From positions 37,647 to 101,646 of IMG/VR virus record IMGVR_UViG_3300032218_003007: a DNA stretch of 64,000 nt; one strand, written 5' to 3'. This stretch comes from a virus. Lineage: Duplodnaviria; Caudoviricetes. Positions 11,822-38,916 of the stretch are shown here, piece by piece; the first letter of the stretch is position 1; every line of letters begins with the position of its first letter. The notes under the pieces are model-generated. The model searched no databases, had not been told where the DNA came from, and was given only the letters and a program-made list of their open reading frames with translations. A program made the position numbers and the translations under genes.

Positions 11822-11822
11822 T

Positions 11823-13309: not shown

Positions 13310-13320
13310 TATGATTTCTC

Positions 13321-14366: not shown

Positions 14367-14377
14367 TGCAATCTCCT

Positions 14378-14626: not shown

Positions 14627-14637
14627 TTTAATTTCCT

Positions 14638-17438: not shown

Positions 17439-18463
17439 TTATTCAAATGTAAAAAGACTGCGGAAAGTACTTTTGATATCAGTGCGTGATGTCATGTCCC
17501 AATTCAGCACGCCTAATAAATTTTCTACTTTCTGATCAACAATAGTTGATTCCATCATATCATCATCGAACGGCAAATCTTTAAACCAAGAAGGAATATT
17601 TGATTCATCGATAGGATAACCTACACTTGTATATCCCAGTGGGTTATCCTTGATCTTGCAAACAATAGTTTTCATACCGTCCACGATTTTCATACTATAG
17701 TTATCGTTGAACATTTGTCTTAGACGATTCCAATTCATTGCAGCACGTACATGTCCAGGCATATTAGTTTTTCCATGAAGAGTTTCTGCTGTGCTGTATT
17801 TGGTAAGATTGTTTACACGTTTAGGAGTTCCTTTCTGCCAAGCAGGAAGATCTTTAAACATCAATTTGAACTCTCGCACTTTCGCGACAACGGTATCACG
17901 TTCAGCGCCGGTCAGCACATCCAACAGAATTTTGCTGAGAAAGTCCTGCACAATTTTAGGAGTATCCGAACGCTTTAAGTCTAATCCCATGGCTTTGACT
18001 TTTCCAGGTTTGCCATCGAAATCCAGTCGCTTGCCTTCAAGTTCATAGATCAACACAGCATAGCGCTTTTTCTTGATAAACAAACCTTTTTCTGCTACCA
18101 GTTCACGACCAGCCTGGATAATACTTCCCATATCTCGTGGGCAATGGCACGCACGTTCCATAAACGCCGGAAATGAATCGTTCACAGAATCTGCGATGGT
18201 ATCATACAGACCTACACAGATATCCTTGTTCCATTCCATGTTGCCTGCTTCTACTTCTGACTTCACGATAGGCCATGCTGAGAAATATACAGAGTCTGTG
18301 TCACCGTAGATAATGCTGTCACCGACATGATTGTACTCGCCGGCGATGGCTTCATTTACAAATGCATCCATGTGTTTGGCAATAATACGACCAGTGAGTG
18401 TTGTGCTTTGTCCAATACGATGGTCAAAGAATCTGCAGCCTGCATTTAGAATAGCGCCATATA
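17439..18463 (-). CDS. Family B DNA polymerase, C-terminal subunit, exon 2 (palm/thumb)
   Basis: Starts TA-TAT-GGC-GCT (L/YGAILNAGCRFFD...GQSTTLTGR), in frame with the 18371 ORF. Contains YGDTDS, KKRYA, KAMGLDLKRSD. Confidence 0.95.
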
Positions 18464-22267: not shown

Positions 22268-23221
22268 TCAGCTTGCTGTTTCTTCTGATTGATATGACCG
22301 TGGAAACTTGTTTTTTATTTTTTCGATTTCAGAATCGACATCATAGTCAGAAAAACTTTGTATTTCTTGAGTTTTTTGATGCATGGCTTGTGTGATTTGT
22401 TTTAACAATCCTGGAAACAACTCAGCAAATTTTTGGTCTGACTGAGTTAAGCTTGAACTGGTTTGCAGAGCATTTTTCATTTGGTTACTGGGCGCATGCA
22501 GTTGCCATTTGCCGTTAACATCGTTTGAATTGTTTTTATCTATGATGCTGATCAACACCCCTTCTGGTGCATATCTGCTGAACCACGTTTCTCCAGAACT
22601 GCTGCCAGTGCAGAAACTGGCTTGAATTCCCATTGAATTATTAAAATAATAGCAAGATCCAAAATTCAGTGGCAACACAACCAAAAATCTGTCATTGTCT
22701 ATCAATACTATTTCTTTTTTGTTTTTCTTGGCAGCTTTTATTTTTTCTTGGTTTCTTATTTTTTTTAGTGCTTCGCTATAATTGCTGTCGCGAAGCTTAT
22801 CTCGTATAGACCTTATATCTTTAAATTTGTTCAGATCTTGGTGAGCAGGAATTAATAGATTTCTGACTTTCAAAACTTTCCACATGCCTAATACATCAGC
22901 TTCACCAGAAATATCTTCATAATCGATAGCAAATTGAATATAACGATTAAATAACCATTCTTCAAAATATCTGCCAGCACTCATGTCACCGTAATCAGTG
23001 TTGACAAGAGCTTTGTCAATCATTTCTCGCCAGGCTAACAATGAATTTTTTGCACTTGATTTTCCCTTGCTTACTAATAAAGCTCTTGAATTTAGTGGAA
23101 TCGATGTATCGTTACGAAATGCTATTTCAAAAGCTTTTAGTTTAGGATCTTTGTCATCTGTATTTTGGGATAATAGTTGATCAACTATTCTAGATTCAAA
23201 CAAAAATTCATATGCTTTCAT
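22268..23221 (-). CDS. Putative internal head protein with PcfJ-like C-terminal domain
   Basis: Leader MKAYEFLFE; VVLPLNFGSC...ASFCTG...FSRY..EGVL...KWQLH pattern. Confidence 0.55.
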   Translation of the reverse strand: MKAYEFLFESRIVDQLLSQNTDDKDPKLKAFEIAFRNDTSIPLNSRALLVSKGKSSAKNSLLAWREMIDKALVNTDYGDMSAGRYFEEWLFNRYIQFAIDYEDISGEADVLGMWKVLKVRNLLIPAHQDLNKFKDIRSIRDKLRDSNYSEALKKIRNQEKIKAAKKNKKEIVLIDNDRFLVVLPLNFGSCYYFNNSMGIQASFCTGSSSGETWFSRYAPEGVLISIIDKNNSNDVNGKWQLHAPSNQMKNALQTSSSLTQSDQKFAELFPGLLKQITQAMHQKTQEIQSFSDYDVDSEIEKIKNKFPRSYQSEETAS

Positions 23222-23233
23222 AAGCGCAGATTC

Positions 23234-24385
23234 CTAAGCTGTCATTAATGCTGACTGTTTGAAAAAATATAAAACAGTGGAAAGTTTTTGCATATCGCCT
23301 TTTCGTATGTCTGAAAAAAGTCGATCAACGTAGTCATGGTTAATTCCCTGAGTTAACTCACGCCAATTATGTTTGTCGTAAACAATTTGCGAAAATTCCA
23401 CGTCGGGATCTCGTGAGTCAGGATAATGATGGTAGGTAGCCAATAACACAGCGTATTTAATCATCTTATCTAAGCTATTGCCAACTTTTTCTGCATCAGT
23501 TTCGGAGTCTAAATATTCTATCAAATCATTTATATCACTTAGTTTGCGAATTTTGTTACTAACGTTGCGATATGCATCGTTTTTTACCATGATGTTGATG
23601 GAATTTTTAAGCTCACCTTTTGCAGATTCTAAAGTTCGCCGCCAAATTGGTTTAAATCGTTCCAACAACCAAGAAAAAGAAACGTTTTCAGATGTATTGT
23701 CTTTTTTGGCATTCTTTCTAGCTTTGAATTTATCAAAGGAAGCAGAATACTGCGCTGCAATATATACGTCTTTCTTTTTGATGTTGCCCAAGGTATGTTT
23801 TAAGCGATCTAGAAAATTCTTTTTACCTGTTGTTTTAAAAAAAACTATGTCATCTATATCGTCCGCAGGGAATAATAGTTCACCTTTGTTAGTTCTACGA
23901 TCAAAAGTAGCATAAATTTTACGTGTGGGATCATTTGGTAGCCAATAATTGACAAATTGCCCAGTATCACTCCAACTGTACTCCCATCTGGGGTTATTGG
24001 TTGTGTTTATCAAAATAAATAATTCTTTCAGCAAATTATCAAAATTAGAGGCTGATGTTGTTTTAATTATGGTTTCTGCATCACTGCGGGGATTGGTATA
24101 CCATACATGATAGACTGTATCTGCAGGGTGCGATCCAAACTGGGGAGTCTTTGCCGCTATACCAGCAACACCTTTTTCAAATTCAATTAAAAGCAATGAA
24201 TTGTTTGGAATACTTGATTTAATATCGTATTGTGTGAAATCTGCGTCATGCAGTATAACATTATTTTTATGCAGATGTTGTATAATCTCGATTGCCTTAG
24301 GTGATTTGGAAAAAAACTCCATAGGCTTGCTGTATTCAACAAGTGTGCTTTCAATTAATTGTATATGTCGTCTTATATCGCTCAT
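23234..24385 (-). CDS. Putative internal head protein, unknown function
   Basis: 383 aa, leader MSDIRRHIQLIESTLVE. Confidence 0.6.
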   Translation of the reverse strand: MSDIRRHIQLIESTLVEYSKPMEFFSKSPKAIEIIQHLHKNNVILHDADFTQYDIKSSIPNNSLLLIEFEKGVAGIAAKTPQFGSHPADTVYHVWYTNPRSDAETIIKTTSASNFDNLLKELFILINTTNNPRWEYSWSDTGQFVNYWLPNDPTRKIYATFDRRTNKGELLFPADDIDDIVFFKTTGKKNFLDRLKHTLGNIKKKDVYIAAQYSASFDKFKARKNAKKDNTSENVSFSWLLERFKPIWRRTLESAKGELKNSINIMVKNDAYRNVSNKIRKLSDINDLIEYLDSETDAEKVGNSLDKMIKYAVLLATYHHYPDSRDPDVEFSQIVYDKHNWRELTQGINHDYVDRLFSDIRKGDMQKLSTVLYFFKQSALMTA

Positions 24386-24391
24386 AATCTT

Positions 24392-25171
24392 TTATTTATC
24401 TTCCAAAAGATCTTTTATTGCCGACATACTGGTGAAACGTATCAGCAAACAAGGGTCGCCAACCCAACATTCATTGTCTGAATAATATTGGCGGGTTGCA
24501 GCAAATTCGCTCGTGCTTAGTAGTTCCCAATGGGCTCGCTGCGGAGACAAAGCGTGATATAAGTACTGGTAAAAGTATTTTGGATTTAAGCCAAATTTTT
24601 TACAGTAGTTTTCTGCTTCTGGTGTTAAAACTTCTTGTGCAACATCTCCAGCACTTAAATTCAAATAATCTTCGAGCCAATTATTGAATGCCTGCATGCT
24701 GGTATAACCATAAAAATGAAGATTGGGGTCAACAGTAATTGGCGTTCGCCATATATCATTTTGTGGACAAATTCCAATCTTGCTGCCATTAAATGGAATA
24801 ACGGCATAAGTATCACCAGAACTTTTTTTCCCGATAGGATCAGCAAATCCTTGGGCGTAATCAAAGCCGGCCGAGCAAATTAGGCTTTTACTGCGACGAG
24901 GATACTCTTTCATATATGGACTATTATCCAGCAGAACAGTATAATGGTTGGTAGTGTTTTGACTGATTCTTGATCCGGAACTTGGATATACAATTCTGTA
25001 ATCCCCAAAATCAGTCATGCCACGATACAATGTTTTTTCACCTTTTTGTTGAACCAGCGGTAAAAAATCACTGCACTTGGTTTTTAAAATTTCCACAGCC
25101 TGATCTTGTGATAAATCTTTGTGCTGATAGGCTTGTACGCCAGCCTCAATGATGAATTCTTGATATCTCAT
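24392..25171 (-). CDS. Putative internal head protein, ADP-ribosyltransferase-like (paralogue 1)
   Basis: Leader MRYQEFIIE; LYRGM / KSLICS / NECWV in R-S-E arrangement. Confidence 0.55.
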   Translation of the reverse strand: MRYQEFIIEAGVQAYQHKDLSQDQAVEILKTKCSDFLPLVQQKGEKTLYRGMTDFGDYRIVYPSSGSRISQNTTNHYTVLLDNSPYMKEYPRRSKSLICSAGFDYAQGFADPIGKKSSGDTYAVIPFNGSKIGICPQNDIWRTPITVDPNLHFYGYTSMQAFNNWLEDYLNLSAGDVAQEVLTPEAENYCKKFGLNPKYFYQYLYHALSPQRAHWELLSTSEFAATRQYYSDNECWVGDPCLLIRFTSMSAIKDLLEDK

Positions 25172-25172
25172 T

Positions 25173-26480
25173 TCAATAAACTAAATTAAGTTTTTCAAAT
25201 ATCAAAGGCAACACTTTATCACGATAAAAAGTGTAATCAACACGATAATAATATAAACTACTTTCGTTGTTTGGTGGATAAATCATGATTTCATTGTGTG
25301 ATAAAATTGCTTCAGATAAAAGACCGGAGTTTTTGCTAGAACCGTATTCATAATCTGCTTTGTTATATAAATCGTCGATAAATTCAAAAGCTGTATCCAG
25401 GTCATTGTTGTTTCTAGCCATAGTCTCTATATAAGCTGGTATTTTACCGTATAAATCTCTGATTTTTGGACTATAACAAAACTTAAATCCATTCATTGGA
25501 AAAATCACACTCAATTTTCCATATTCAGTAGCGTCCAGCGCGTCGCCGGTGCAAAACATGCCGTATCTAAAAGGTAACCCACTGTCTGCACTGTGATTAA
25601 GATTCATTCTTTGATTAAGTAGCTCTGGGGTATCTGTACTTCCCTGCTCAATTTTTTTCTGACGGTTACCGATATCATATCTTGTAAGTGAAAAATTTGG
25701 TGTGCTGCGTTTGCTACCTCGATACAAATTTAATCTGGTATCTTTCTTAAATATTGACATCATATCACTGCAATTTTTAAACAACTCACGTATAAAGATC
25801 GACAGATCATCTTCTTTTGTTAAATTTGATGCAGCTTCATCAATGTAAGGTAAGCGAACATTTTTATTCTTTTCAGGATCAAATGGCTTGACTTCTTTTT
25901 TCTTGGTCGCGCCTCGCCAACCACGTTCCCATGCTGCAGCACCTGCAGCAGCACTTTTACCCTGCTTAATAAAATGAGCGATTACTTCTTGCTTGCTGTT
26001 AAAGCCTTCTGAAATATCTTTGTTGGAAAAGCGAGGATTATAAAAATTGCCTTCTATGTACCAATCTAAATATTGATATCCTTGTTCATAGTTATCTCTG
26101 ACATCGCTGACAATTACGTTATATCCAAGATCGTCTAAAAACAGTTGAACTTCGCGTATCAACCACTCTTTAGATTGCTGATTCCAGTTCATTACTTGCC
26201 CTACATCAAAGTCATTCCAATCCTCGCCAATGATACCGGCTAGCTGAACGTCTGTATACCATCTACCATTTTTGTCATTGTTGCCATCGCCATCTACCGC
26301 AAATTCATATAAACTTTCTGGATATATTTCACGAGATTCTTTGTGCTTCTTTCGACCAGCACAATGAGCTTTTTGGCTGAAACCTTTTGGATGACTGCAA
26401 TCAATACTGCGTTTGTATTTTTTGCTCCATTTTTCACTCACTCGGCTAGTTTCTTCGTTGAGTATTTCGTTTATTTTCAT
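25173..26480 (-). CDS. Modular putative internal head protein with C-terminal ART-like domain
   Basis: Leader MKINEILNE; KWSKKYKRSIDCSHPKGFSQKAHCAGRKK micro-module; LYRGS / GMFCT / HNEIMI. Confidence 0.55.
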   Translation of the reverse strand: MKINEILNEETSRVSEKWSKKYKRSIDCSHPKGFSQKAHCAGRKKHKESREIYPESLYEFAVDGDGNNDKNGRWYTDVQLAGIIGEDWNDFDVGQVMNWNQQSKEWLIREVQLFLDDLGYNVIVSDVRDNYEQGYQYLDWYIEGNFYNPRFSNKDISEGFNSKQEVIAHFIKQGKSAAAGAAAWERGWRGATKKKEVKPFDPEKNKNVRLPYIDEAASNLTKEDDLSIFIRELFKNCSDMMSIFKKDTRLNLYRGSKRSTPNFSLTRYDIGNRQKKIEQGSTDTPELLNQRMNLNHSADSGLPFRYGMFCTGDALDATEYGKLSVIFPMNGFKFCYSPKIRDLYGKIPAYIETMARNNNDLDTAFEFIDDLYNKADYEYGSSKNSGLLSEAILSHNEIMIYPPNNESSLYYYRVDYTFYRDKVLPLIFEKLNLVY

Positions 26481-26537
26481 TTTATTTTATGCCTATTTAA
26501 CTTTTTTGTGTAAAACATATGAAACAGCTATGAATCA

Positions 26538-27278
26538 TCATATCTTTTTGATCACTTCATTCAGCATATCACGTCGGATTAATAACACTTTTCCGCCTAC
26601 CCAACATTCTCTACGATCTAATAACTCACGGTTAGCTGCAAATGCAGCAGTTGAAAACAAGTTGAATCCTGTGTGTTCTGGTGACATTCGTTGATCTATT
26701 ATGTCATAAAATTGATCCGGATTGACACCATTATCTACACATAGAGATCGCAATGTGTCTGGTATTTTTCTTTCTGATACGTCTTTTTCACTGAGTTTAA
26801 AATGTCGTCTAAAATACAGATCGATGTCTTCAAAAGAACAAACTTCTCCTCCCGCCAGGGGAAGATTTCTTATCACGGTGAACCAAATATCACTATACGG
26901 ACAGACTCCAATTTTTTGCCCATCGAACGGTACCAATGCATATATAGTTCCATAATCTCCAGCATAACTTTTATCAGTCGTACAAATTAAACTTTTACTA
27001 CGTGCTGGATATTCACGAAAATAAGGACTGTTATCCATCAATATGGTATAGTAATTTTTAGTATTAGTACTTTTTCTAACACCAGTGCTGGGATCTATAA
27101 CCAAAAACGCACCTCGGTTGGTCATGCCCCGAAACAATGTGTCTCTGCTCTTAACCAGTTTTAATGAATCTTTGCAGTTGTTTTTTAATATTTCTACAGC
27201 TTCGTCACTAGACCAGTCTCGAACTTGAATTTCGTATGGTTTGACTGCTGTTTCCGTGATGATCTCTTTTGCTTTCAT
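26538..27278 (-). CDS. Putative internal head protein, ADP-ribosyltransferase-like (paralogue 2)
   Basis: Leader MKAKEIITE; clear paralogue of 24392-25171 (DNSPY..EYP.RSKSLIC, KIG.CP..DIW, ECWVG). Confidence 0.55.
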   Translation of the reverse strand: MKAKEIITETAVKPYEIQVRDWSSDEAVEILKNNCKDSLKLVKSRDTLFRGMTNRGAFLVIDPSTGVRKSTNTKNYYTILMDNSPYFREYPARSKSLICTTDKSYAGDYGTIYALVPFDGQKIGVCPYSDIWFTVIRNLPLAGGEVCSFEDIDLYFRRHFKLSEKDVSERKIPDTLRSLCVDNGVNPDQFYDIIDQRMSPEHTGFNLFSTAAFAANRELLDRRECWVGGKVLLIRRDMLNEVIKKI

Positions 27279-27288
27279 TGATGTTAGC

Positions 27289-30200
27289 CTAGTTTCCCGC
27301 GTATGCTTGGTAATTTGCTTGTCTACTATCTACTCCCCGCATTGCTGGATTGATCTGTTTGGTAACCTGAGATGTGTCACTAAAATCACTTACATTTGGT
27401 CTAACTCTGCTTTTCCAATAATAAATTGCTGCATATCCGCCGATCATGGGATCAGCCATTAATGTAGGATAACGCAATAAAAAATCCGGGTGATCGCCGC
27501 CAGGCAATGATTCTAAAAATTCAGGATCTTCATTTTCAAATTTATTGAAAAGATACTGACTGGCGTTCTGATAATTTTCTCTGCCTGTTATTTGCAATGG
27601 CCCGCGCCCTATAAATTTAGCAGCATCTTTTCTATTTTTATTACCCAAACTTGTTTTTTTAGCATAAGAAGCAGCTAATTTCTTTATTGCACCTATTTCA
27701 TGCATCTTTTGAAAATTAGCTGTTTCATGCTTGCACTGGGCTAGAAACTGTGCTAATTCTTCTCCTCTTAAACCTTCGTTTACGGCAATAGAATACAATA
27801 TTTTTTCAGACTCGTGTTGAGTTTGAAGTTTTATTTGCGGCTTATGTTTTTTAATTGCTTTTTGTTGTGCAATGTTTTGTGCTGGTGCTGGTTGCACTTG
27901 CTGTGTAACAGCTGGTCTTTCGGTCGGTTCTTTGTGTATATCTGGTGCTGGTAGTTTAGTCATGCCGGCAGCAATAGCTGCACTAGCAGCAACACCCAGT
28001 GCTGTCTTTCTCCAGTCTTCTTCTAAACTTTCATAAACCCCAATATAATTTTCAAATTCATCAGGATCCCCAGATACCTGGTAAAATTCTACGTCATTTG
28101 GTTCAAACTTAATATCTGGTATTTTTTGCCAGCTAAATCCACCGCCGGTCTCGTATATATGATATGGTATATCGATACTGTAAACACCTTCTTCAAATTT
28201 TGCACCAACGTATACATGTTGTTCCATGGAGCAACTTACAGTAGCACATTCAATTCCCATTGAACCTAACACATCACAAATTTCATCTGCTAATAAGTGA
28301 CATATGCCACCGCCTGCATATGTATCGCGATCTGCCTCATCCCAATCATCATATACTCTTTGAACTTTTTCAAGAATTCTTGGCATTGCTGATTTAGCGG
28401 TATTCACAGAAGGCAATGATTCATTTTGTTCATCAAAATTTTCTGGAACATATTCAATATCATAGCCTTGATCATTATCACCATAAGTGCCGGGTGTATC
28501 TCTGAACCCATGTTTTAGATACCATTGTCTAAGTCTTTTGCTGCTAGCTATGTATTTCTTTTTTTCAGTATGATATGCTTTGGCTAAACCTTCAATGCCA
28601 ACACCATGCTTGTTGGCTAAGCCTATTATAAACTTTAGTCCGCGTGTGCCAGCACCTGATCGAGGATTTAACGAACGTATATCAGCTAAATGTATGTTGG
28701 ATCCATATGGACTTAGTTCAATAGAAACCTCGTCATTGTAAATTCTTTCTTTACTAGAAAAAGGATGAGAGTTGGTTTGCTCATAGTATTCATCCATAAA
28801 AGCATCAGTGTTTTTAGAACTTTTTCCTGACAGCTTGATTTCATCTAGTCGAGCTGATCTATTTTTGGCATCAATTGCCATCCATTTATCTTTCAAATAA
28901 TGATAAAGTTCTTTGACTGAAGAAATCTTGTGTTTCATCATGAACTTGTTGATCTTGACCACTTCTGGGTATTCTCTACTGGCTGGCTTACGAGAGTTAT
29001 GCATATCATTTTCTAAGCCTTTGTGCGCATCACTATACTGACTATGATAAATCAGGTTATAACGCAGTGTTTCGGCGCCAGCACTAAGCCTTGATTTTTG
29101 ATCTTGGTGCATGAGTTCTAACCATTGACCAAGATGATCGTACCTTGATTTTCGCCAAGTCTTGGTAGGTTCTATTGAACCTGACAGTGCTGATTTTATT
29201 TCTGACGGGTTAACAGCTCGGCGTTTATCTTGTAACAACCAGGCTTGGCTAGTAGTATATAAAAAAACTGGTATATTTTGTTGTTTGGCTAATATCAAAC
29301 AATGTCTTACTCTTACACGATGTCGTTCATCTGCACTTTTATCATCTGGCTTAATGAATAAATGCAGTTCGCGAACCATGGTTAACGGCAAAGTATTGGT
29401 TCGAGAAAAGATTCGATCTTCACTTTCACTGGTTCGTCCTGATGACGACTGTAGCCACATACGGTCCCAATAATCAACTGGTTTAGTTTTGACACCGTGT
29501 GTGTTAAGCCAATCTCCATCTAGCACAAACATAGCAGCAGAATACGGTGTATAACGATGATAATCGCCTACCTTGCTTCTGGTGGTGCTCAAAAAGAATG
29601 GGCGGCCTTTGGGTGCTAAACCAGCTTCGACTCCAGTGCCAGTCGATGAAGATAGTTCAAATTCTTGATCTTTGAGTATTTGTTCAGCAGCCCACACACT
29701 GGTATAGTGAAACAGCACTGATGTGGCTGCTTCTGTTATAAATTCGTTGCGTTCTGCTTGATCTTCTCGTACTAATGATGCTAAAAATTCACTTTGACCC
29801 TGTGGAAAACTTTCAAAGTTTTCATCTAAAGTTTTTTTATTTTTTAATGCGTCTTTAAGATATCTTTTGCCATCTTTGGTAACGTACCATTGACCTTCAT
29901 AATCTACAATATAACCATTGGAACTCAAACTATCAAGCACATTATCAGCTTCAGCAGTACGTGATTCATCTTCTACATAATCCATGCCTAACTTTGTTGC
30001 AGTTAGTATCCCGTGCAAGAACAAAATCTTTCCTAGTCCTTGGTTACGAAACTCTGGATAAATTTCAGCTATGCTGCGACCTGATTCTGAATCGTACTGG
30101 AATACTCCGGCTGCCACACCATTTACAAACATCTCTGTTCCAAAATAATCACGGGAAATATTTTTACGTACTTTGAACGATATTTCGGTGTTACCTAGTT

Positions 30201-32070
30201 TAGCAAGACTTTCATCAGTGCGTTGATATTCATGCGCTTCACCATCTAGACTCACATGCCAAGCATAGAATCTAGTATCAGGATACTCTTTTTTCAAGCT
30301 GATGAATGCATCTAGATTTGGCACAGCATCATCATACATGATTGCTTTTGAATAATCTTGTTGATTTAGCAATTTACGAATAATGATCTTTTTCTTTTCT
30401 TCTGTTTGAATTTTATCCTTGATATTGCCCGCGCGATACACATGCACCTTGCTCATATCAATGTCAAATCGACGGAAGGTATTCAGAAATATTTCGCGAT
30501 CATTGAAATCTTCACGCGCAGTGACCATCACTACTTTGTTGCCAGTGGCAATATCTTGCTTGAGTTGTTTTATCATAGGTAAATTTGGTCGAGACTTTTC
30601 AAAGAACTCTTGTGCGTCTCGGAATCTACCAAAATCAAAATGCTCACCTGATTTTAATTTATAATGCGTAAACTCGTGACTGTTCAAATGAGCGACAGTT
30701 TTGCCGTTATGTATCACATGAACCTTGGTGTCTGTGTGAACTAATGTGTCGTCAATGTCAAAGATAACTAATTTTCTTACAGGCAAATCTTGAAAATCTT
30801 CATGGATGCCTTCTGCTTGATCAGCATATTCTTTGATAGTTTGTATGCTAGCCGAATCATTTAACAATGATTTTAATCCTGGATGTAACGGCGCAGGCCA
30901 TTCACCAAACTGTACCCAATCAAATGTTTGAGTTTCCCAATTTAACTGCGGAGTAAACTCACGTTCTACCAATGCCATAAAGTTGAAATAGCGAAAACCT
31001 GAGCTATGCTGGAACAATAATAATGGCACCATTTTCACTGGACCATCATAACCAGCTTCTTCTTGCACTTCACGTTTGGCTGCTACAGCCGGATCTTCAT
31101 TGCCGTCAATTGCACCACCCCATGTTCCCCAAGTATTAGGTTCTTGAACATGTGCAGATCTGTACGGCAAACAAATCCTGCCAGTGTCTTTAGCCATAAT
31201 GATACAACCAGCGCCTTGCTTGCCCCAAAATCCTGTGCGACCAAGTTCTGCTGCATGTTCAGCGTCATTTTCTACTATATCTATTTGCTTATCTGGAACA
31301 ATGCGACACGGAATAGTTTTTATACCAAGTTTTTTATAAGCGTGTAGTCGATGATGCCCATCAACCACTTGATAGCCTGTGCCCTGTTTTCTTACTAAAA
31401 TTGGGGGTATTTTGCCGCCGCTTTGTATAAACTTTTTTAATCTACTTACGTTCATGCGACTGCTTAATGACTTCATTTTGTCTTCTGGTTCAAATACATT
31501 AATGAGGTCTACTGGCAGCATGCGTAAGGGAATATTCTTTTCTCGATGATTAGTTACAGTTGCACCAAAATATTCAGGATCAGTACTTAACTGAACCATT
31601 GGCTTTAACGCTTCCTGGATTTTTTCTATTTTAAACAATGGTCCTCTAACGTATTTTGTTGATTTTTCAGCGATAAGACCATTGTTGATATTTTTTACAA
31701 AATCTTGAGTCAGATCTCTTGCTCGATAACCACCGTTGGGAAATATGTGAACTTCAACAGGCACATCTCCTTCTAACTTCTGGATAAAAGTCATGCGATT
31801 ACGACCTTCATGATTTCTAACGGTAGCCGGACTAGAAAAATCGCCATCGTCCCATGCAGCAGGTATGCTGATACTTAAAAAAGGAGCACCGATAGCACCG
31901 CCGTCAGCGATATATTTCTCTAGTTCTTTGCTGGGTTCAGTTTCCAGTGGTGCAGCTAACTTAAGAAATACACTAGGCAGCATTTTGACTCTAAGCCCAA
32001 AATAATCAACATCTTGATTAAAAGGTACAGCACCTATGCCGTTACGGTTATCTATCTTGTGTTCGTTCAT
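27289..32070 (-). CDS. 1593-aa polyvalent polyprotein: ParB-like x2, NUDIX, HAD, GNAT, ART-like, GNAT-like, Cys-His-Asp, GH19
   Basis: HEGRNR; PPILV...VVDGHHR; GGAIDGNEDPAVAAKREVQEEAG; FDIDDT...VTAR...YDD; PEFRNQGLG; FHYTS/FLSTTRS/ESEDR; RSGAGT..WYLKHGF; GICH/QHVY/IDI; FLAQCKHET..GRGPLQITGRENY. Confidence 0.85.
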   Translation of the reverse strand: MNEHKIDNRNGIGAVPFNQDVDYFGLRVKMLPSVFLKLAAPLETEPSKELEKYIADGGAIGAPFLSISIPAAWDDGDFSSPATVRNHEGRNRMTFIQKLEGDVPVEVHIFPNGGYRARDLTQDFVKNINNGLIAEKSTKYVRGPLFKIEKIQEALKPMVQLSTDPEYFGATVTNHREKNIPLRMLPVDLINVFEPEDKMKSLSSRMNVSRLKKFIQSGGKIPPILVRKQGTGYQVVDGHHRLHAYKKLGIKTIPCRIVPDKQIDIVENDAEHAAELGRTGFWGKQGAGCIIMAKDTGRICLPYRSAHVQEPNTWGTWGGAIDGNEDPAVAAKREVQEEAGYDGPVKMVPLLLFQHSSGFRYFNFMALVEREFTPQLNWETQTFDWVQFGEWPAPLHPGLKSLLNDSASIQTIKEYADQAEGIHEDFQDLPVRKLVIFDIDDTLVHTDTKVHVIHNGKTVAHLNSHEFTHYKLKSGEHFDFGRFRDAQEFFEKSRPNLPMIKQLKQDIATGNKVVMVTAREDFNDREIFLNTFRRFDIDMSKVHVYRAGNIKDKIQTEEKKKIIIRKLLNQQDYSKAIMYDDAVPNLDAFISLKKEYPDTRFYAWHVSLDGEAHEYQRTDESLAKLGNTEISFKVRKNISRDYFGTEMFVNGVAAGVFQYDSESGRSIAEIYPEFRNQGLGKILFLHGILTATKLGMDYVEDESRTAEADNVLDSLSSNGYIVDYEGQWYVTKDGKRYLKDALKNKKTLDENFESFPQGQSEFLASLVREDQAERNEFITEAATSVLFHYTSVWAAEQILKDQEFELSSSTGTGVEAGLAPKGRPFFLSTTRSKVGDYHRYTPYSAAMFVLDGDWLNTHGVKTKPVDYWDRMWLQSSSGRTSESEDRIFSRTNTLPLTMVRELHLFIKPDDKSADERHRVRVRHCLILAKQQNIPVFLYTTSQAWLLQDKRRAVNPSEIKSALSGSIEPTKTWRKSRYDHLGQWLELMHQDQKSRLSAGAETLRYNLIYHSQYSDAHKGLENDMHNSRKPASREYPEVVKINKFMMKHKISSVKELYHYLKDKWMAIDAKNRSARLDEIKLSGKSSKNTDAFMDEYYEQTNSHPFSSKERIYNDEVSIELSPYGSNIHLADIRSLNPRSGAGTRGLKFIIGLANKHGVGIEGLAKAYHTEKKKYIASSKRLRQWYLKHGFRDTPGTYGDNDQGYDIEYVPENFDEQNESLPSVNTAKSAMPRILEKVQRVYDDWDEADRDTYAGGGICHLLADEICDVLGSMGIECATVSCSMEQHVYVGAKFEEGVYSIDIPYHIYETGGGFSWQKIPDIKFEPNDVEFYQVSGDPDEFENYIGVYESLEEDWRKTALGVAASAAIAAGMTKLPAPDIHKEPTERPAVTQQVQPAPAQNIAQQKAIKKHKPQIKLQTQHESEKILYSIAVNEGLRGEELAQFLAQCKHETANFQKMHEIGAIKKLAASYAKKTSLGNKNRKDAAKFIGRGPLQITGRENYQNASQYLFNKFENEDPEFLESLPGGDHPDFLLRYPTLMADPMIGGYAAIYYWKSRVRPNVSDFSDTSQVTKQINPAMRGVDSRQANYQAYAGN

Positions 32071-32082
32071 ATGCTGTATTTC

Positions 32083-32718
32083 TCAATTTGGTTCTCGAAA
32101 GTTTTTTGCACCAGCAATAATATTATCAATAATTGCTTTGTCTTTTGGAGTTAGTTTATTGCTATTGTCTAGAATCTTTTTGACTTCTTGTTCAGAGTTA
32201 GCCCATGTTATAATATCTTTAATACGTTCTATTGCGTTTTTAGTTTTGCTACTGATAATATCATGGATCGCTGCTGCTTGTTGGTCAGTGATATCTACCT
32301 GAGGTGCAATCATGTTGCGAAGAATACTGGTCGTGCTGACACTGATACTAGGTCCATGACGGTTAGAATATGGCGCTAATAAAAACTTGCCGACCTTAGC
32401 GTATGTTTTAACAGATTCTCTATTATATGGATCTTTGGTGTGAACTAGTTGTGCTCGTTGTTTAATGTCTTGCCATGCATCATCTCTATCTTCTAGATTG
32501 TCGAAGTGCACGTTCCACTCTGGATCATAGTATGCGCCGCCTCTGCTCATTGTCCACTTAGTACGATGAAAGCTGCGGTTCGTCCACGCATTTAATCCGT
32601 GAAAATACTGCGCTAGATTTTTTGCAAACACTCCCGTGGTGACTTTATTTCCAGACGGAAAAACGGCTAGTTTATCTGATGATTCACTTTCTTCAGATAT
32701 AATTTCAAAAATCTTCAT
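32083..32718 (-). CDS. Putative internal head protein, unknown function
   Basis: Leader MKIFEIISE; AGGAG RBS. Confidence 0.6.
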   Translation of the reverse strand: MKIFEIISEESESSDKLAVFPSGNKVTTGVFAKNLAQYFHGLNAWTNRSFHRTKWTMSRGGAYYDPEWNVHFDNLEDRDDAWQDIKQRAQLVHTKDPYNRESVKTYAKVGKFLLAPYSNRHGPSISVSTTSILRNMIAPQVDITDQQAAAIHDIISSKTKNAIERIKDIITWANSEQEVKKILDNSNKLTPKDKAIIDNIIAGAKNFREPN

Positions 32719-32751
32719 TGCACACAGCTCCTTTGTATTACTTATACTTGA

Positions 32752-33240
32752 TTATTTGAGAAAAGTATCAGCAATGCGCTTGCATAATTCGCGAAGTTTT
32801 TCATCAGCAGTTTCGTTTACTTCAAAATGTCGTTCAGCATAATCATCACTGTCATCTTGCGTTGGATCAGAATAGCCGCAATATACCTGAGCAATGCCTA
32901 CTTCGTGCATTAAATCTGTGCAACTAGCACCTAATCTGTCAGGCATGTGTTTGCTGCATGGACTGAGTGTGGTGATCATGACTGACCCTGGTGGTACACG
33001 ACCGTGTTTGGTTTGATATCTTTGTACAGCAGCACGCTCAGCGTGCACTCGACGCTTGCTGCGTACATGATTGATGGCATAAACCTCTTGCCCCTCGGGG
33101 TCGATTAAACAAGCAGCTACCATGCCGTAATGATCAGGATCTTTATCCTGACCGCGTTCAATCATTTTACAAAGTTTTTTCAGAACTCGATCATAGTATG
33201 TAAAGTCCTGTGATGTATAACTGAAATGACTGGCACGCAT
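32752..33240 (-). CDS. Zn-dependent deaminase (CDA/RibD-like)
   Basis: VHAERAA, TTLSPC-x11-C, GIAQVYCG..DP. Confidence 0.85.
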   Translation of the reverse strand: MRASHFSYTSQDFTYYDRVLKKLCKMIERGQDKDPDHYGMVAACLIDPEGQEVYAINHVRSKRRVHAERAAVQRYQTKHGRVPPGSVMITTLSPCSKHMPDRLGASCTDLMHEVGIAQVYCGYSDPTQDDSDDYAERHFEVNETADEKLRELCKRIADTFLK

Positions 33241-33241
33241 T

Positions 33242-33679
33242 TTAGTCTTTCAGAGTAGCACGCAACTGCCAAGCATGCTTTTTAAATGCGTCTAGCCTTT
33301 CTGCAAGAAAATTACTGAATCCGTGTTCACCCTCGCGTTCAGCAATATCATAGACCATCTTTAATACTTTAGACATTTTTTCTGCATCTGCCAGCAGAAT
33401 TTCAATCATTTCTTTTGCTGGCACTTCATATACTTGATCCTCAATGCGACTCAGCATATTGAAACGACTGTTTGATCCTGGAGCGTAGGCATCTAGTGAG
33501 CGAATCTTTTCTGCAAACTCGTCAACACTGTCCAGTACTTCTTGATAAATTGTGCCAAACAAACTGTGTAGTTCTTGAAAGTGTATGCCTTCTACGTTCC
33601 AATGAAATTCATGAGCTTTCAAGTAAAATGTAAACTGACTGGCGAATGCGATTTTTGCTGCTTTGATTAGTTCTTCCAT
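33242..33679 (-). CDS. dps: Dps / ferritin-like protein
   Basis: KAHEFHWNVEG..FQELHSLF...DEFAEKIR, KHAWQL. Start MEELIK after a GGAG RBS. Confidence 0.93.
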   Translation of the reverse strand: MEELIKAAKIAFASQFTFYLKAHEFHWNVEGIHFQELHSLFGTIYQEVLDSVDEFAEKIRSLDAYAPGSNSRFNMLSRIEDQVYEVPAKEMIEILLADAEKMSKVLKMVYDIAEREGEHGFSNFLAERLDAFKKHAWQLRATLKD

Positions 33680-33680
33680 G

Positions 33681-35210
33681 TTATACTCCGTATCCTGCAT
33701 CACGCATTTCGCGTAGATATGCTGCTATTTCTTGATCTGTTATTTGGCTTTCGTTGGCGTGTTTGAAATATTGTACTTCACGTTCATGTTTTTCAGCACC
33801 GGCTCTGCTGTCAAATGTGCCTAGATTCTTGCCTTTGCTGCTGTAAAGGCGATATTTGTTATCACCAATCTTGCGAATAGTTTCGCTGAGATCAAAATCA
33901 GGTGGTACATAACGACCGCCATGTTGTTCGATATGATCTTGCAAAACGTCAATATTTTCAAATCCACGTTCTTGTAGTTCTTGTTCTATGCTGGACATAT
34001 CGATTGATTCTCGGTCAGCCCAATCACGAATAAATTTGTCTGCATTTTCGCCAATTCTCACTGCTATTATCACAGCGCCAACTATTTGATCCCATTTTAT
34101 ATCCTGCATTTCAATGTCCATGTCGCTCATGACACTTTCGTTTTTCTTGGTAGCAACATTAATAGCTTTGCCACGACGCTCTGGATTAGGATCTTGTTTA
34201 CGCTTGCGACGAGCAGCACTGGCACGACCTTTCTTGCCTAGTGCGTGTGCCTTGCTTTGTGGCAAACATTTTGGTTTTCCTTCACTGTCTTTGCCTCGGG
34301 CACAATCACCTTTTATCTTGCCATCAGGCCCAAATCGAACCCATTTTTCTTTGAACCACTTTTTTAAATCTTCGTCAAGTTGTTCATCTTCGTCGATGCT
34401 TTCAGATTTGTTCCCCCAATTCTTGGCACCTTTTTTTCGACATTTTACTAGTGCGCCTGAAGCATAAGCACTTGGCCAAACCTTGTAACGACTCTTGACT
34501 TTATAATAGCAAGCATCTTTTTTTTCGTCTATGCGATCTTCACTAACCATCTCGCCACCACAATGCGGACATTTTGATTCATCTAGATTGCCTTCCAAGC
34601 GACGAACAACATCAGTGACATAAGTGTCCAATCTATTCATATCAATGCCGCCGCGATCCAAGATATAGTCCGTGACATCCATGATCGCATCCATTATATC
34701 GTCATTGCCATAACGACGAATCAATTCTGGATGTTCATCTTCTATGCGATCTATTAATGCAAGTGTAAGATATTCTTCTTTTGATGATTCTTGTACAGAG
34801 ACTTTTTTAGTTTCTGTCACACCTTTATTCATCGTAGACTGAACCCATGGAATAAATGTTTTTTGGATCCACTCCTGGTGCTGCTTGCTTTTATCCAATG
34901 TGCTAGTATCAGCTATTCTGCCATTGACCATAACAGGTTTAATATTGTTCACAGCATCTGTGATTTTCTTTTGAATATCAGGACTAGCTGACTTGATTAC
35001 TGTTCGTAGTTGTGCAGCTGCTTCATTTTGTCTTCCTTGCATTGCCAATACTGCTACTCGATGTAGATTACTAATAACAGGATCATACATACTGGCAAAC
35101 GCTTTAGTTATATCATCTGCTGCACTTTCAGTTATCTTCCTGCGACGGCGTTCCCACAAACGCTTGCCTGCGTCTGCCATGTCATCTGAAAAAAGTTCAT
35201 TTATATTCAT
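33681..35210 (-). CDS. Modular putative internal head protein (string of micro-domains)
   Basis: Leader MNINELF; modules KKDACYYKVKSRYKVWPSAYASGALVKCRK, DLKKWFKEKWV...PKCLP and TIRKIGDNKYRLYSSKGKNLGTF, each preceded by (I/L)-X-E. Confidence 0.65.
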   Translation of the reverse strand: MNINELFSDDMADAGKRLWERRRRKITESAADDITKAFASMYDPVISNLHRVAVLAMQGRQNEAAAQLRTVIKSASPDIQKKITDAVNNIKPVMVNGRIADTSTLDKSKQHQEWIQKTFIPWVQSTMNKGVTETKKVSVQESSKEEYLTLALIDRIEDEHPELIRRYGNDDIMDAIMDVTDYILDRGGIDMNRLDTYVTDVVRRLEGNLDESKCPHCGGEMVSEDRIDEKKDACYYKVKSRYKVWPSAYASGALVKCRKKGAKNWGNKSESIDEDEQLDEDLKKWFKEKWVRFGPDGKIKGDCARGKDSEGKPKCLPQSKAHALGKKGRASAARRKRKQDPNPERRGKAINVATKKNESVMSDMDIEMQDIKWDQIVGAVIIAVRIGENADKFIRDWADRESIDMSSIEQELQERGFENIDVLQDHIEQHGGRYVPPDFDLSETIRKIGDNKYRLYSSKGKNLGTFDSRAGAEKHEREVQYFKHANESQITDQEIAAYLREMRDAGYGV

Positions 35211-36547
35211 TATTTCTGTCCTGCAGTTCTTTGTGATTGCTGTTGCTGCACGCTTGGGTTTGTGCCAGGTTTTTGTGCCTGTGTTTGCTTGGCTAATTGT
35301 TGTTGTTGTGCTTGATTCATTGTGCCGGCTTTGTTCATAAGCTGTTTGAACTGACCAGCAGTGCCGGGATTTTTAAGTATATTAGCCAATGGGCCAGCAA
35401 ACTGTGCCATCTGACCAGCCTCTGCTGCACCTAGCTTGGTTGATGGATTTGCGTCTACTTTGGTCAATGCACCAACTGCTTTTTGTGCATTGAGATCTGT
35501 GCCGCCCTGGCTAGCAACAGCAGGCTTTACTGCTTGTAAAGTTTTAGTCATAGTCTTTAGATCTTTCTGTGCTTGTTGTTGCTTGGGATCATTTTGTGAT
35601 CCTGTGGTTCCTTGAGGACTTTGTGGAGCTGAGCCATAGCCACTTACGCCACCATATTCATTTAAAAAATCACGATATTCTTGCATCAGACTGCGAGCAG
35701 ATTTTGATTTTGGGTGTTGTAGTGTTTGTTCAAGCTCTTTTAATATACTCTCACCAGCGCCAACTAAACGACCTTGAAATGGATGTTTTCCGCTTTTATT
35801 AGGCTTGGCTTTTTCAGTGCCGCGAACTTGATCGCCAGGTTTTTGTTTTGGATTAGCAAATGAAAATTTAGATTCATCCATATCACTCAGATCTATCTGA
35901 AGATCAAATTCTACATCGTGTGACAGTTTCTTGCTAACTAAACCGTAGAATGAATATGCTTTAGATGCAGAGTTTTTGTCAGCGAATAGTTTTGTCATGT
36001 TCCAAGTCTGTGCTAGATGAAAGACATCATGATTGTCTGAATCTGGATATTTGCTGCCATCTGCAAACTCTAATTGTTGAACTGAATCTTTATTTGATAT
36101 TTTCACTATTTCTTTTGGTGCTAAAAAACCATTCAATCTTGCAATTACTTTATGACCAGGGACATTTAATGTTGATAATTGTAATAATGCAACCTTATCG
36201 CCTATAGCAGCAGAACTAACAGTATTATCAGATCGATCTGAAAATTCATCAAACAACTGTTGTTCTAGATATGATGGATTTTTGACATGAGTTTTTTGTT
36301 CAGTAATGCTGCGACGATAAACACCAAATAGATCAAGTGTATTGGCCCATTGCGGTAAATTTAAATTTTTTGTAAGATTTTTATGAAACTTGCTGTAATC
36401 AGAGCCAGCAGACTCTGACAATACATCCAAATCTGAATACGATAATCCTTGTAACCTAGGCTGTTGGTCACTATACATTAAACTGCTGGTTTCAGCAGAC
36501 AATTGATATTTTGTTACTGCTTCCAGCAGCCTACGCATGTCAGTCAT
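35210..36547 (-). CDS. Modular putative internal head protein, Gln-rich C-terminus
   Basis: Leader MTDMRRLLE; internal LSE, MDE and LNE junctions. Confidence 0.6.
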   Translation of the reverse strand: MTDMRRLLEAVTKYQLSAETSSLMYSDQQPRLQGLSYSDLDVLSESAGSDYSKFHKNLTKNLNLPQWANTLDLFGVYRRSITEQKTHVKNPSYLEQQLFDEFSDRSDNTVSSAAIGDKVALLQLSTLNVPGHKVIARLNGFLAPKEIVKISNKDSVQQLEFADGSKYPDSDNHDVFHLAQTWNMTKLFADKNSASKAYSFYGLVSKKLSHDVEFDLQIDLSDMDESKFSFANPKQKPGDQVRGTEKAKPNKSGKHPFQGRLVGAGESILKELEQTLQHPKSKSARSLMQEYRDFLNEYGGVSGYGSAPQSPQGTTGSQNDPKQQQAQKDLKTMTKTLQAVKPAVASQGGTDLNAQKAVGALTKVDANPSTKLGAAEAGQMAQFAGPLANILKNPGTAGQFKQLMNKAGTMNQAQQQQLAKQTQAQKPGTNPSVQQQQSQRTAGQK

Positions 36548-37272
36548 TTGCGTCGAATAACCTTGTTTTTAGGCTTTTTGCCTAGTGCATCTTTAAAAGG
36601 ATTATCATTTTGTCCAAAAGATCCGCCAAATAATGTACCAACCTTGTTCTTTGGACGATTCATTTGACCCATGCTGCTGGCGATTGCACCACTCATGGTT
36701 TCGTTGAACACGGATTCATCAGCAATCTTATACTTTTTAGAAGTTTTTGGATCTTTTACAAAGCGATTAAATGCACTTTTCTTAAGAAAAGGGTCAACAG
36801 GAAAATCTGATCTTGGGTCATATTGCTTGTAGCCACGAGGCTTCTTCGGCAGCACATCATCTAGCGATACGTATAGATCTTTTGGATCTACAGGTTTATT
36901 GCTTGCTGGTATTTTTTTCGACCTCGATCCTTCTGTCACATCATCTTTGCCTATTAGTTCATTGAATCTTTGTTCAGCTTCAGCCAGTTCAAATATTTCG
37001 TGCTCCGGTTCTTCGTGGGCATGATTCATATTATGTTCCATGTATTCGTGAACTGTGCGCAGATAATCACAGGCTAGTGTGAGCTTTTCTTGTACCCAGC
37101 CATCCAATCCTTCAAATTCGCTGACTTGTTCCAGCATCTTGTGAAGTTCGACGGCATATTTTGCTGCACTATAGCAGTCACCACGCGCCATTTGAACTTC
37201 GTGATCGCGATGCATGCGTTCTGCATCTTCTCCGATGCCTCTGTATTCTACGATAGTTTTTTTCTTGCTCAT
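36544..37272 (-). CDS. Putative internal head protein
   Basis: MSKKKTIVE leader; helical EVQMAR...LDGWVQEKLTLACDYL domain; ATAAATA at 37299-37305. Confidence 0.6.
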   Translation of the reverse strand: MSKKKTIVEYRGIGEDAERMHRDHEVQMARGDCYSAAKYAVELHKMLEQVSEFEGLDGWVQEKLTLACDYLRTVHEYMEHNMNHAHEEPEHEIFELAEAEQRFNELIGKDDVTEGSRSKKIPASNKPVDPKDLYVSLDDVLPKKPRGYKQYDPRSDFPVDPFLKKSAFNRFVKDPKTSKKYKIADESVFNETMSGAIASSMGQMNRPKNKVGTLFGGSFGQNDNPFKDALGKKPKNKVIRRK

Positions 37273-37308
37273 ATAATGATTCCTGATAACTGTTTATATA
37301 TTTATTGA

Positions 37309-38916
37309 TTACATCACTAACACTTTGCCAACCATGTCAACCAACACCTCATTGAAATAATAATCCATATCTCGTGCTAATGTTTCTGTGAGTCTTGAAC
37401 TATACTCAGCTGATTCTGGATTAAATCTCATGCCTTTGGTTGGCTTTCCCCATGCTTTTTTGCCATAGTAAATTACATCTGGCAATGGATTCAGCGTTAC
37501 ATGGCCTGTTTTGATGTACTGGGCAAACATTTCATACATAAACTCATATGGTCTGCGAATCTGATTCATACGACTGCTGCGTTGTGTGCCAATCGCATTG
37601 AACAATGCAGCATATTCAGTGTATTTTTCTAATCTAAAATGTTTTCCATCTGAACCTGGTGTAATTTGCTGTTTATAATCTGTTGACAATATTTGGTTTA
37701 TGTTCTTAAAAAAATGATTTTCAGCTTCTCGCCATGATTGTCCTGCTGCTTGTAAACTAGAATAAACTGAAGTTGTTGCCCTGCAAGCATGTCCTATGCG
37801 GTGTGCCATAATCCAGGGTGTCATGGCCACAGGATCTGCGCCCGTATTGCCTACAAAGACCACGGTTATTGCATCTTCGTGATCTGCTAGTATTTGATCT
37901 GCTTGTTTTGGAAATATTTTACGCAGCTTTTGTTCAGAAACTGCACCTATTTCACTATGCTTGCCTGTGCCTGATACATTGGCAAAGAACAATCTAAAGT
38001 CATGAGGTGTCTTTTCAAAGAACTTTATAGTTTTAAGTTTGCTGACTGGATGAGCAACTAGTTTTTTGTTTGCACCACGGAATGGGCCTGGCTTGTCAAA
38101 ATCACCGATCAGGTCATAACTCTTGACTGCCATTTCATCTAGATCATCAGCACTTTCTAGATGGAACTTGTCGAGTTGTTTTCTCAGAGTTCCTGGGCGA
38201 ACATCTCGCGTCAAACTCATGCTGTAACGTGGATCATTTTTCTGTCTGCTTGTGGCGATTTGTCCTACGCCAGCTGCTTCTTCAGTGAGTCCTCCTAGGA
38301 TACTATCTAAACGAGCAGATAACTTGCTTATCAATGCAGGTTTTTTGTTTAATACTGGATAAAGATCAGTCAAAAGTCCTGCTTTGTCATCAGGACTCAT
38401 ATTGGGCCACATTTCGCGAATTTGACTAGCGCTGGTTATGCCTGATTTGCCTGCTTTAAATTGTACGGTCGGTAGATAGTCGATATAAGCATGTTTAGCA
38501 GAAGGCTGAAGTTTATCATTGTATGGCTGCAGATACGAAGCACTGCCATCTTTTTTAACTCCACCTGGTTTTGGTTGTTCATCTCGATCTTTTTCACTGC
38601 GAACAAACACAACAGCAGTACTATAAGGATCATAATTGTCAACGATTTCTTTAGCTTGAAATGGGCTCTTTACCTGCACAAAGCGATCTGCTGGAATTCC
38701 TGCTAATTGGGCCAGTTGTCTCTTCATTTCAAATGGAAATGGACGCTCTTTGCGATCATCTGTTGATGCTAGATAGATATCAGCATTGGGAAACTTTTGT
38801 TTGGCAGCATTATAAAGACTTAAATGACCAGGATGAAAAGGATGATAACCACCAGGTAGTATTACTACTAGCTTTTGTGCTACATCAGATGATTCAAAAA
38901 GTTCGGCAATAAACAT
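37309..38916 (-). CDS. HxGH nucleotidyltransferase (cytidylyltransferase/NMNAT-like) fused to a zincin-like domain
   Basis: Leader MFIAELFE; PGGYHPFHPGH, SASQIR; C-terminal WIMAHRIGH...EMFAQY. Confidence 0.75.
   Translation of the reverse strand: MFIAELFESSDVAQKLVVILPGGYHPFHPGHLSLYNAAKQKFPNADIYLASTDDRKERPFPFEMKRQLAQLAGIPADRFVQVKSPFQAKEIVDNYDPYSTAVVFVRSEKDRDEQPKPGGVKKDGSASYLQPYNDKLQPSAKHAYIDYLPTVQFKAGKSGITSASQIREMWPNMSPDDKAGLLTDLYPVLNKKPALISKLSARLDSILGGLTEEAAGVGQIATSRQKNDPRYSMSLTRDVRPGTLRKQLDKFHLESADDLDEMAVKSYDLIGDFDKPGPFRGANKKLVAHPVSKLKTIKFFEKTPHDFRLFFANVSGTGKHSEIGAVSEQKLRKIFPKQADQILADHEDAITVVFVGNTGADPVAMTPWIMAHRIGHACRATTSVYSSLQAAGQSWREAENHFFKNINQILSTDYKQQITPGSDGKHFRLEKYTEYAALFNAIGTQRSSRMNQIRRPYEFMYEMFAQYIKTGHVTLNPLPDVIYYGKKAWGKPTKGMRFNPESAEYSSRLTETLARDMDYYFNEVLVDMVGKVLVM

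Follow-up and report, generated by a model that had tools for sequence, protein, structure and literature searches.

The gene described here lies on the minus strand at 27289-32070 of a 64,000-nucleotide stretch of DNA (the window), which is the final 64 kb of a 101.6-kb viral record in IMG/VR (IMGVR_UViG_3300032218_003007; Duplodnaviria, Caudoviricetes). CheckV estimates the completeness of this contig at 29%, which makes it a piece of a jumbo phage genome of ~350 kb. The open reading frame (ORF) is intact, and its product, P0001, has 1593 amino acids and a mass of 181.1 kDa. Among cultured phages the gene had no match by megablast, and tblastn of the protein yielded single modules only. An earlier note on this DNA had described P0001 as a polyprotein of nine modules, with glutamates at the domain junctions that fit the consensus of a T4-type prohead protease. 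All ten of the glutamates that it listed are present at the residues given (IQE153, IVE267, IHE424, TDE620, LDE750, ITE780, LDE1077, FDE1214, QNE1217 and LEE1351), and seven of these sites match [IL]-x-E.

The modules are described from the N-terminus, and all are encoded on the minus strand. Module 1 (amino acids 1-153; 31612-32070) is ParB_N-like, carries an HEGRNR motif and ends in KIQE153. The ParB_N assignment is a weak one, drawn from language-model features (ESM atlas score 0.92). In BLAST of homologues the high-scoring segment pairs (HSPs) of this module end at 140-149, and a standalone homologue, RsoM2USA_385, starts with MQTFKQFLSE and stops at the equivalent of about residue 150. 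Module 2 (154-267; 31270-31611) is of the ParB/Srx type with a DGHHR motif and ends in IVE267. It is assigned to ParB_N by Pfam PF02195 (27.6 bits at 204-257, above the cut-off) and by a PHROG ParB-like family (7e-12). Module 3 (268-424; 30799-31269), ending in IHE424, is a NUDIX hydrolase (Pfam PF00293, 43.5 bits versus a cut-off of 21.1, at 286-401) in which an intact NUDIX box, G-x5-E-x7-R-E-U-x-E-E-x-G-U, can be read at 319-341. Standalone homologues of module 3 open with leaders, for example MRAYEFITE/NDQEH (the slash follows the glutamate in question). Module 4 (425-620; 30211-30798) is a HAD-type phosphatase resembling the PNK phosphatase, recognized at 430-617 by PHROG_415 (1.2e-9) and a DIDDT motif; its end, TDE620, is non-canonical. 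In about 35 homologues the HSPs begin at 430-439, and the standalone ones among them mostly open with MRAxEF/I.

Module 5 (621-750; 29821-30210) is a GNAT acetyltransferase ending in LDE750. The GNAT match is weak in P0001 itself (Pfam E=0.08), and the homologous modules of relatives do carry GNAT Pfam hits; in the relatives P0006 and P0011-13 the module is flanked by QGVAE. A short spacer follows (751-780; 29731-29820), apparently made up of the remnant of a C-terminal ENF... tail and an embedded leader, RNEFITE/A, that resembles a capsid-targeting sequence (CTS). Standalone proteins of the next module, an ADP-ribosyltransferase (ART), open with leaders such as MRAHEFITE/AAT at the exact alignment position of the spacer end. 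The tail is seen in full on many proteins of the family, such as P0005, P0006, P0010, P0088, P0091 and P0093, as a basic C-terminal stretch of ~55 amino acids right after a joint (ENFADG/ENFHDG ... WMANMKSGK...), and P0001 retains only its degenerate start, LDE/NFESF, at 750-757. The complete tail may bind DNA or the head core.

Module 6 (781-1077; 28840-29730; end at LDE1077) combines an ADP-ribosyltransferase fold of the DarT/KptA type with a helical C-terminal part. An AlphaFold 2 (AF2) model of residues 775-1077, built on a 31-sequence alignment, has a predicted local distance difference test score (pLDDT) of 89.7 and a predicted TM-score (pTM) of 0.86. The best Foldseek matches of this model are DarT (3.8e-4) and Tpt1/KptA (6.7e-4), followed by pierisin and pertussis S1, with probabilities up to 1.0. 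All of these are ART folds, so the ART-like call holds. Invariant in the 31 aligned sequences are the candidate catalytic residues His788, Ser828, Arg831, Tyr837 and Glu882-x-Glu-Asp-Arg. The equivalent of E780 lies ~5 residues ahead of the first ART strand, in the N-terminal tail, where the model is less confident. Relatives of P0001 carry PF18760 (ART-PolyVal) and PF18857.

Module 7 (1078-1214; 28429-28839), ending in FDE1214/QNE1217, has homologues in residues 915-1043 of P0014 and in the standalone protein P0075, which starts with MRAREFVAE/ITISG. The earlier note had called it GNAT-like; Pfam, PHROG and structure/atlas searches gave no family match. Module 8 (1215-1351; 28018-28428; end at LEE1351) has an invariant Cys-His, Cys, Glu-Gln-His, Asp, Tyr and Glu (alignment A4), and it had no match in Pfam, in a PDB profile search or in the ESM atlas. 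It forms the C-terminal end of P0007 and directly follows the HAD module in P0005. Module 9 (1352-1593 plus the stop codon; 27289-28017) ends the chain with a probable GH19-type muramidase at 1437-1588, which is matched by PHROG endolysin families (1.5e-22 and 8e-18) and by Pfam GH19 at 19.6 bits, below the 25.5 cut-off. Ahead of this domain, residues 1352-1420 (27800-28017) comprise a basic stretch, an Ala/Gly-rich hydrophobic segment, ALGVAASAAIAAGM, and a Pro/Gln-rich linker. A cut after LEE1351 would leave module 9 with an N-terminus resembling a membrane anchor, something that has been reported for SPN3US gp47. Overall, the domain calls of the earlier note stand for ParB_N, NUDIX, HAD, the ART fold and, by PHROG, the GH19-type lysin, and are weakly supported for GNAT (621-750) and for the ParB-like module at 1-153.

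Because the domain limits of the earlier note had been set by eye, limits independent of the motif were needed. Relatives were collected by a word-index search, which yielded 14 with rearranged architectures, and by an HMMER search with P0001 residues 154-1351 among 1.84 billion representatives, which yielded 6518 proteins at E<=1e-3 and 724 at E<=1e-30. For breakpoint mapping, full-length P0001 was compared by BLAST with the best ~160 representatives of the 6518, each standing for one 50%-identity cluster. The breakpoints obtained in this way cluster at 140-159, 260-269, 400-439, 610-629, 740-785, 1057-1084, 1202-1220 and 1337-1352, and every one of the listed sites falls inside these zones. 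An AF2 run on residues 1-800 (4-sequence alignment) had a mean pLDDT of 34 and gave no domain limits.

Of the 13 [IL]xE motifs in the chain, 8 fall in the junction zones, which account for 14.4% of its length (1.9 expected; binomial p=1.2e-4). With the broader motif [ILV]xE, whose enrichment in linkers the earlier note had proposed to test, 11 of 22 occurrences lie in the zones (p=8.5e-5). No enrichment was observed for [IL]xD or [IL]xK, and isoleucine or leucine occupies P3 at 8 of 27 glutamates within the zones versus 5 of 88 outside (Fisher p=0.002). The motif signal is therefore more than a by-product of acid-rich linkers. The phiKZ-type motif [SAG]xE is not enriched in the zones (2 of 25; p=0.89), and a protease specificity of that type was rejected for these joints.

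In phage T4, experiments have shown that a ten-residue CTS directs proteins to the core of the prohead and that gp21 cleaves it off after a glutamate; residues 4 and 7 of the CTS are important for targeting, and residues 8 and 10 for cutting (PMC9026906, PMC5694885). Translated from the reference genome, T4 IPII and IPIII start with MKTYQEFIAE/A and Alt starts with MELITELFDE. Leaders of this kind are common in the family of P0001, being present on 113 of 164 members versus 14 of 155 genes in a control contig from a related phage. The ART module illustrates the relationship between leader and joint. Among the ~160 representatives it is N-terminal in 35, behind leaders of the MRxxEFIxE/ type (such as MRAHEFITE, MRANEFLIE and MKINEILTE), and internal in 24, behind unrelated modules. 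In 22 of the 24 internal cases [ILVMF]xE immediately precedes the module (~1.2 expected; p ~1e-26); P1 is glutamate in 23 and P3 is leucine, isoleucine or valine in 23. The glutamate equivalent to E780 is invariant (31 of 31 sequences). In the case of the NUDIX module, MRAYEFITE or MKSYEFLIE precedes it where it is N-terminal, and sequences like PLRE, VVKE, AMVE and SVIE where it is internal. When module 1 occurs in other proteins, hydrophobic-x-Glu (h-x-E) precedes it in every case.

These joints could be fossils of gene fusion, that is, relics of the leaders of once-separate CTS genes in a protein that now works untargeted, uncut and intact as a multi-enzyme chain in the infected cell. The absence of a leader on P0001 itself would fit such a history, as would joint 773-780, a complete leader minus its methionine, and the resemblance of spacer 751-780 to a degenerate tail plus leader. 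However, the P1 glutamate and the hydrophobic P3 outlast the decay of the remaining leader, both in the 22 of 24 internal cases and at every joint of P0004. In this relative, which is 76% identical to P0001, h-x-E is kept at every joint with changed residues: IVE has become VVE, IHE has become IDE, ITE has become LQE and LDE has become IKE. In more distant lineages (P0005, P0006, P0008, P0009, P0011-P0013 and the polyvalent protein of contig G002), the joints have been homogenised to (Q)GVAE(G), with 4-6 copies per protein. The persistence of h-x-E in P0004, together with the re-homogenisation to GVAE of entire lineages, argues for continuing selection on the joint peptide itself, and a purely fossil origin is accordingly judged unlikely. 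The homogenised joints suggest lineage-specific co-evolution of the joint with its protease.

The joints are also the places where modules come and go. P0002 and P0003, both 97% identical to P0001, lack the GNAT module, which is missing exactly between joints 620 and 780. P0003 (contig L001, 13160-13660) has an extra 145-amino-acid module at joint 1214, which ends in the basic motif ...LAHWMANMKSGKRKAN. A direct repeat flanks this insert; its two copies agree over 25 bases in a row and encode [N/D]FDEQNES. The absence of GNAT between joints and the extra module at joint 1214 show that module gain and loss occur at the joints, probably through homologous recombination between joint-coding sequences. 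The earlier note had asked whether such shuffling takes place at the same glutamate sites in other phages, and homologous modules there are indeed shuffled at these sites.

Such exchanges raise the question of whether recombination is all that the joints are for, in which case conserved DNA would provide homology for cassette swaps and the peptide would stay uncut. The L001 repeats and the GNAT module gained or lost exactly between joints speak for this explanation. It does not account for distant relatives, which differ in DNA and in the P2 residue yet keep the h-x-E class, nor for the use of the same motif class at the end of N-terminal leaders, where a role in recombination is inapplicable. 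As the sole explanation it fails and is quite improbable; as an added role of the joints it is compatible with cleavage.

P0001 can be compared with several known systems. Polyvalent proteins of phages and conjugative elements were described as chains of 2-15 unrelated effector-type domains, with predicted delivery in the virion and an analogy to the polyproteins of RNA viruses (Iyer, Burroughs, Anand, de Souza and Aravind 2017; PMC5512222). P0001, with ParB_N, NUDIX, HAD, GNAT, an ART fold and a GH19-type lysin, is such a chain; common to both is the union of many unrelated effector domains (of kinds such as ParB, ART, GNAT, deaminase and lysozyme) in a single phage protein. That work proposed that embedded peptidases of the MPTase or assemblin-like kind bring about release, and it described no linker motif (PMC5512222). 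Embedded processing peptidases are frequent, not obligatory, in polyvalent proteins, and no Pfam or PHROG peptidase match was found in P0001. Unlike the processing proposed there, the joints of P0001 match the site of a separate prohead protease and the grammar of the CTS.

Release by an embedded domain, for example the Cys/His module at 1215-1351, or by a host protease has nevertheless to be weighed, as it was proposed for polyvalent proteins bearing an MPTase (PMC5512222). The invariant Cys-His, Cys and His of module 8 speak for it. Against this, no module has a peptidase match among family profiles, in the PDB or in the atlas, and the same joint grammar is present in relatives that lack module 8 (P0006, P0012 and the G002 polyvalent protein). 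In addition, the joint motif agrees with the leaders and with the sites of T4-type proteases. Self-processing, or cleavage by some other peptidase, is thus highly improbable.

The T4 internal proteins IPI, IPII and IPIII and Alt resemble the P0001 system in their short leaders ending in hydrophobic-x-Glu, in comprising anti-host effectors, an ART included, that are packaged in the head and injected (as would be the case for P0001), in their hypervariable gene set and in the S77 protease of the clade. They differ in being separate genes whose products are cut once or twice near the ends, whereas P0001 has about nine modules, internal sites and no leader. In T4 (65.4-67.5 kb), ipII and ipIII adjoin e (lysozyme) and nudE (NUDIX), enzyme classes that are also fused into P0001. 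In phiKZ, 201phi2-1 and SPN3US (gp175/gp245), the gp21 homologue of these giant phages cleaves numerous head and ejection proteins behind a glutamate, and propeptides behave like a CTS; there, however, the motif is S/A/G-x-E (2 of 25 at P0001 joints) and the substrates are single proteins with long propeptides. The Dar proteins of phage P1 (DarA, DarB, DdrB) act against restriction and are packaged in the head, some of them being processed by the time of packaging or during it, and ParB-like domains are involved; but they belong to another head lineage with another protease, and neither a CTS-type leader nor a repeated joint motif has been described for them. None of the papers searched joins polyvalent proteins or polyproteins to the prohead protease or to a capsid-targeting sequence. 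The new element here is the combination of T4 CTS/gp21 processing with polyvalent proteins, each of which was already known separately.

The clade to which this phage belongs encodes a protease of the expected kind. By its ClpA-like gene, the phage groups with jumbo phages such as Atu_ph07, PA5oct and SCTP-2. The closest large relative read, the 199-kb contig G002 (ClpA 63% identical), has a head module in T4 order: portal, a small protein starting MFITEFF..., Peptidase_S77, a scaffold-like protein and a gp23-like capsid protein. Its S77 protease scores 84.8 bits and is 36% identical to T4 gp21. The propeptide of its capsid protein has ILE34 and LAE42 at the position of T4 gp23 LTE65, the known maturation site. 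The polyvalent protein of G002 (1236 amino acids; 11284-14994) starts with MYVLDMFSDDD and has four GVAE joints. S77 is also encoded by the cultured phages SCTP-2 and RsoM2USA, and in the latter the S77 gene is 3.5 kb away from the leader-bearing homologue of module 1 (MQTFKQFLSE).

These results suggest, with a probability of roughly two in three, that P0001 is a head-cargo polyprotein of a T4-superfamily jumbo phage, cut in trans by a gp21-type (S77) prohead protease; we infer its packaging, cleavage and injection from sequence comparisons. According to this proposal, about nine host-directed modules (two ParB-type, NUDIX, HAD phosphatase, GNAT, DarT/KptA-like ART, two unassigned and the GH19 lysin) would have been fused in frame, each joint keeping the hydrophobic-x-Glu signature of a gp21-type cleavage site, and elsewhere the same modules would be made singly, as internal head proteins that carry a T4-type capsid-targeting leader. 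The P0001 chain would be taken into the prohead core and cut in trans at its joints during head maturation, mainly after E153, E267, E424, E750, E780, E1077 and E1351, with possible further cuts near 620 and 1214-1217. The resulting pieces of 13-35 kDa, plus a 3.5-kDa spacer, would remain in the head and reach the host together with the DNA. The joints would double as recombination points for the gain and loss of modules.

Several observations weigh against this proposal. The N-terminus of P0001 is MNE/HKIDN, and a T4-type leader (10-19 amino acids, MKTYQEFIAE/MELITELFDE-like) is absent; the start MNEHKIDN is kept in a 76%-identical homologue. As P0001 is leaderless, its loading would have to depend on the leader embedded at 773-780, on some other determinant or on a partner, and targeting of the chain by an internal CTS (EFITE780) is a candidate route only. 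Five [IL]xE motifs lie within domains of P0001, and TDE620 and FDE1214/QNE1217 break the I/L rule, being non-canonical at P3. The structural view of linker exposure is confined to joint 780, the model of the N-terminal half being of low confidence. Peptidase_S77, Gp23 and Portal_T4 were not found by profile search on the 101.6-kb, 29%-complete contig.

The claims of the earlier note about delivery have fared unevenly. Its link to a T4-type prohead protease is supported by the T4-superfamily jumbo clade, whose members encode a gp21-type S77, and by neighbouring genes with CTS-like leaders; the protease gene itself is not on this contig. That P0001 is packaged as one chain is uncertain, given an N-terminus without a targeting leader. 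That cutting serves to make enzymes small enough to eject has no basis, because other phages package far larger proteins without cutting them; the very large virion RNA polymerase of phage N4 is packaged unprocessed (PMC5512222).

A broader possibility, for which the odds appear even, is that a general cargo grammar operates in T4-superfamily jumbo phages. A leader of ~9 residues would load any protein into the prohead, and enzymes in any number would be concatenated via hydrophobic-x-Glu joints that serve both as trans-cleavage sites and as DNA recombination sites. Exchange of cassettes would then drive the evolution of the injected arsenal, and the joint motif of each lineage (I/L-x-E in this phage, G-V-A-E in relatives) would co-evolve with its protease.

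Cleavage at the joints would let a single gene supply about nine separate enzymes to the capsid and then to the host. Among them would be nuclease-like domains of the ParB type, a cell-wall lysin, a NUDIX hydrolase, a phosphatase, an acetyltransferase and an ADP-ribosyltransferase resembling DarT/KptA. Such cleavage would account for the release of polyvalent proteins that have no embedded peptidase, and would link the literature on T4 capsid targeting and gp21 processing with that on polyvalent proteins, which are separate in the papers searched. Leader and joint motif together would form a sequence rule for predicting injected phage effectors in metagenomes. The family is large (6518 matches at E<=1e-3). 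The arrangement also suggests a natural multi-cargo form of the T4 CTS packaging tool.

P0001 is encoded within a 16.6-kb island of cargo-type genes on the minus strand (22268-38916), characterized by CTS-like leaders and by modules that are fused in the polyproteins of relatives. Leaders are seen on the minus-strand genes at 22268 (MKAYEFLFE), 24392 (MRYQEFIIE), 25173 (MKINEILNE), 26538 (MKAKEIITE), 32083 (MKIFEIISE), 33681 (MNINELFSD) and 37309 (MFIAELFE); MRYQEFIIE resembles MKTYQEFIAE of T4 IPII and IPIII. In general form, a methionine and two or three residues are followed by glutamate, a hydrophobic pair, one residue of any kind and glutamate. A strict version of this pattern is present in 6 of the 92 genes of the contig, and all 6 are inside the 13-gene block of the island (hypergeometric p=2.4e-6). 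The island genes at 32752 (a deaminase), 32083, 33681 and 35210 correspond to modules found fused in the polyvalent proteins of relatives (P0005-P0010).

The gene upstream of P0001 (32083-32718, leader MKIFEIISE) is in frame with it, and the gap between the two consists of one TGA and four codons (EIQH) at 32068-32085 on the minus strand. L001, the 97% relative, has exactly this arrangement too, which is probably due to chance or to a recent split. Read-through of the TGA, which could supply P0001 with the upstream leader, is unsupported: TGA is an ordinary stop codon here (29 of 92 genes), the window has no tRNA genes and the MNEHKIDN start is conserved.

A second, free-standing GH19-like gene lies at 48273-48899 on the minus strand. 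Its product has 208 amino acids and shares 29% identity with the lysin module at the C-terminus of P0001. This gene probably encodes the lysis endolysin, and the GH19 copy in the polyprotein would act at entry.

The order ClpA, Dps-like gene, polyvalent gene and DNA polymerase is also kept in the 258-kb relative L008. The Dps/ferritin-like DNA-binding gene (33242-33703, minus strand) has no CTS-like leader and adjoins the polyvalent gene both here and in L008 (9564-10001). The DNA polymerase region takes in 19926-21581 and 17439-18371 on the minus strand. Its polymerase ORF of 551 amino acids aligns with no more than positions 1-487 of the 856 in PHROG_262, so the polymerase is apparently divided over several genes.

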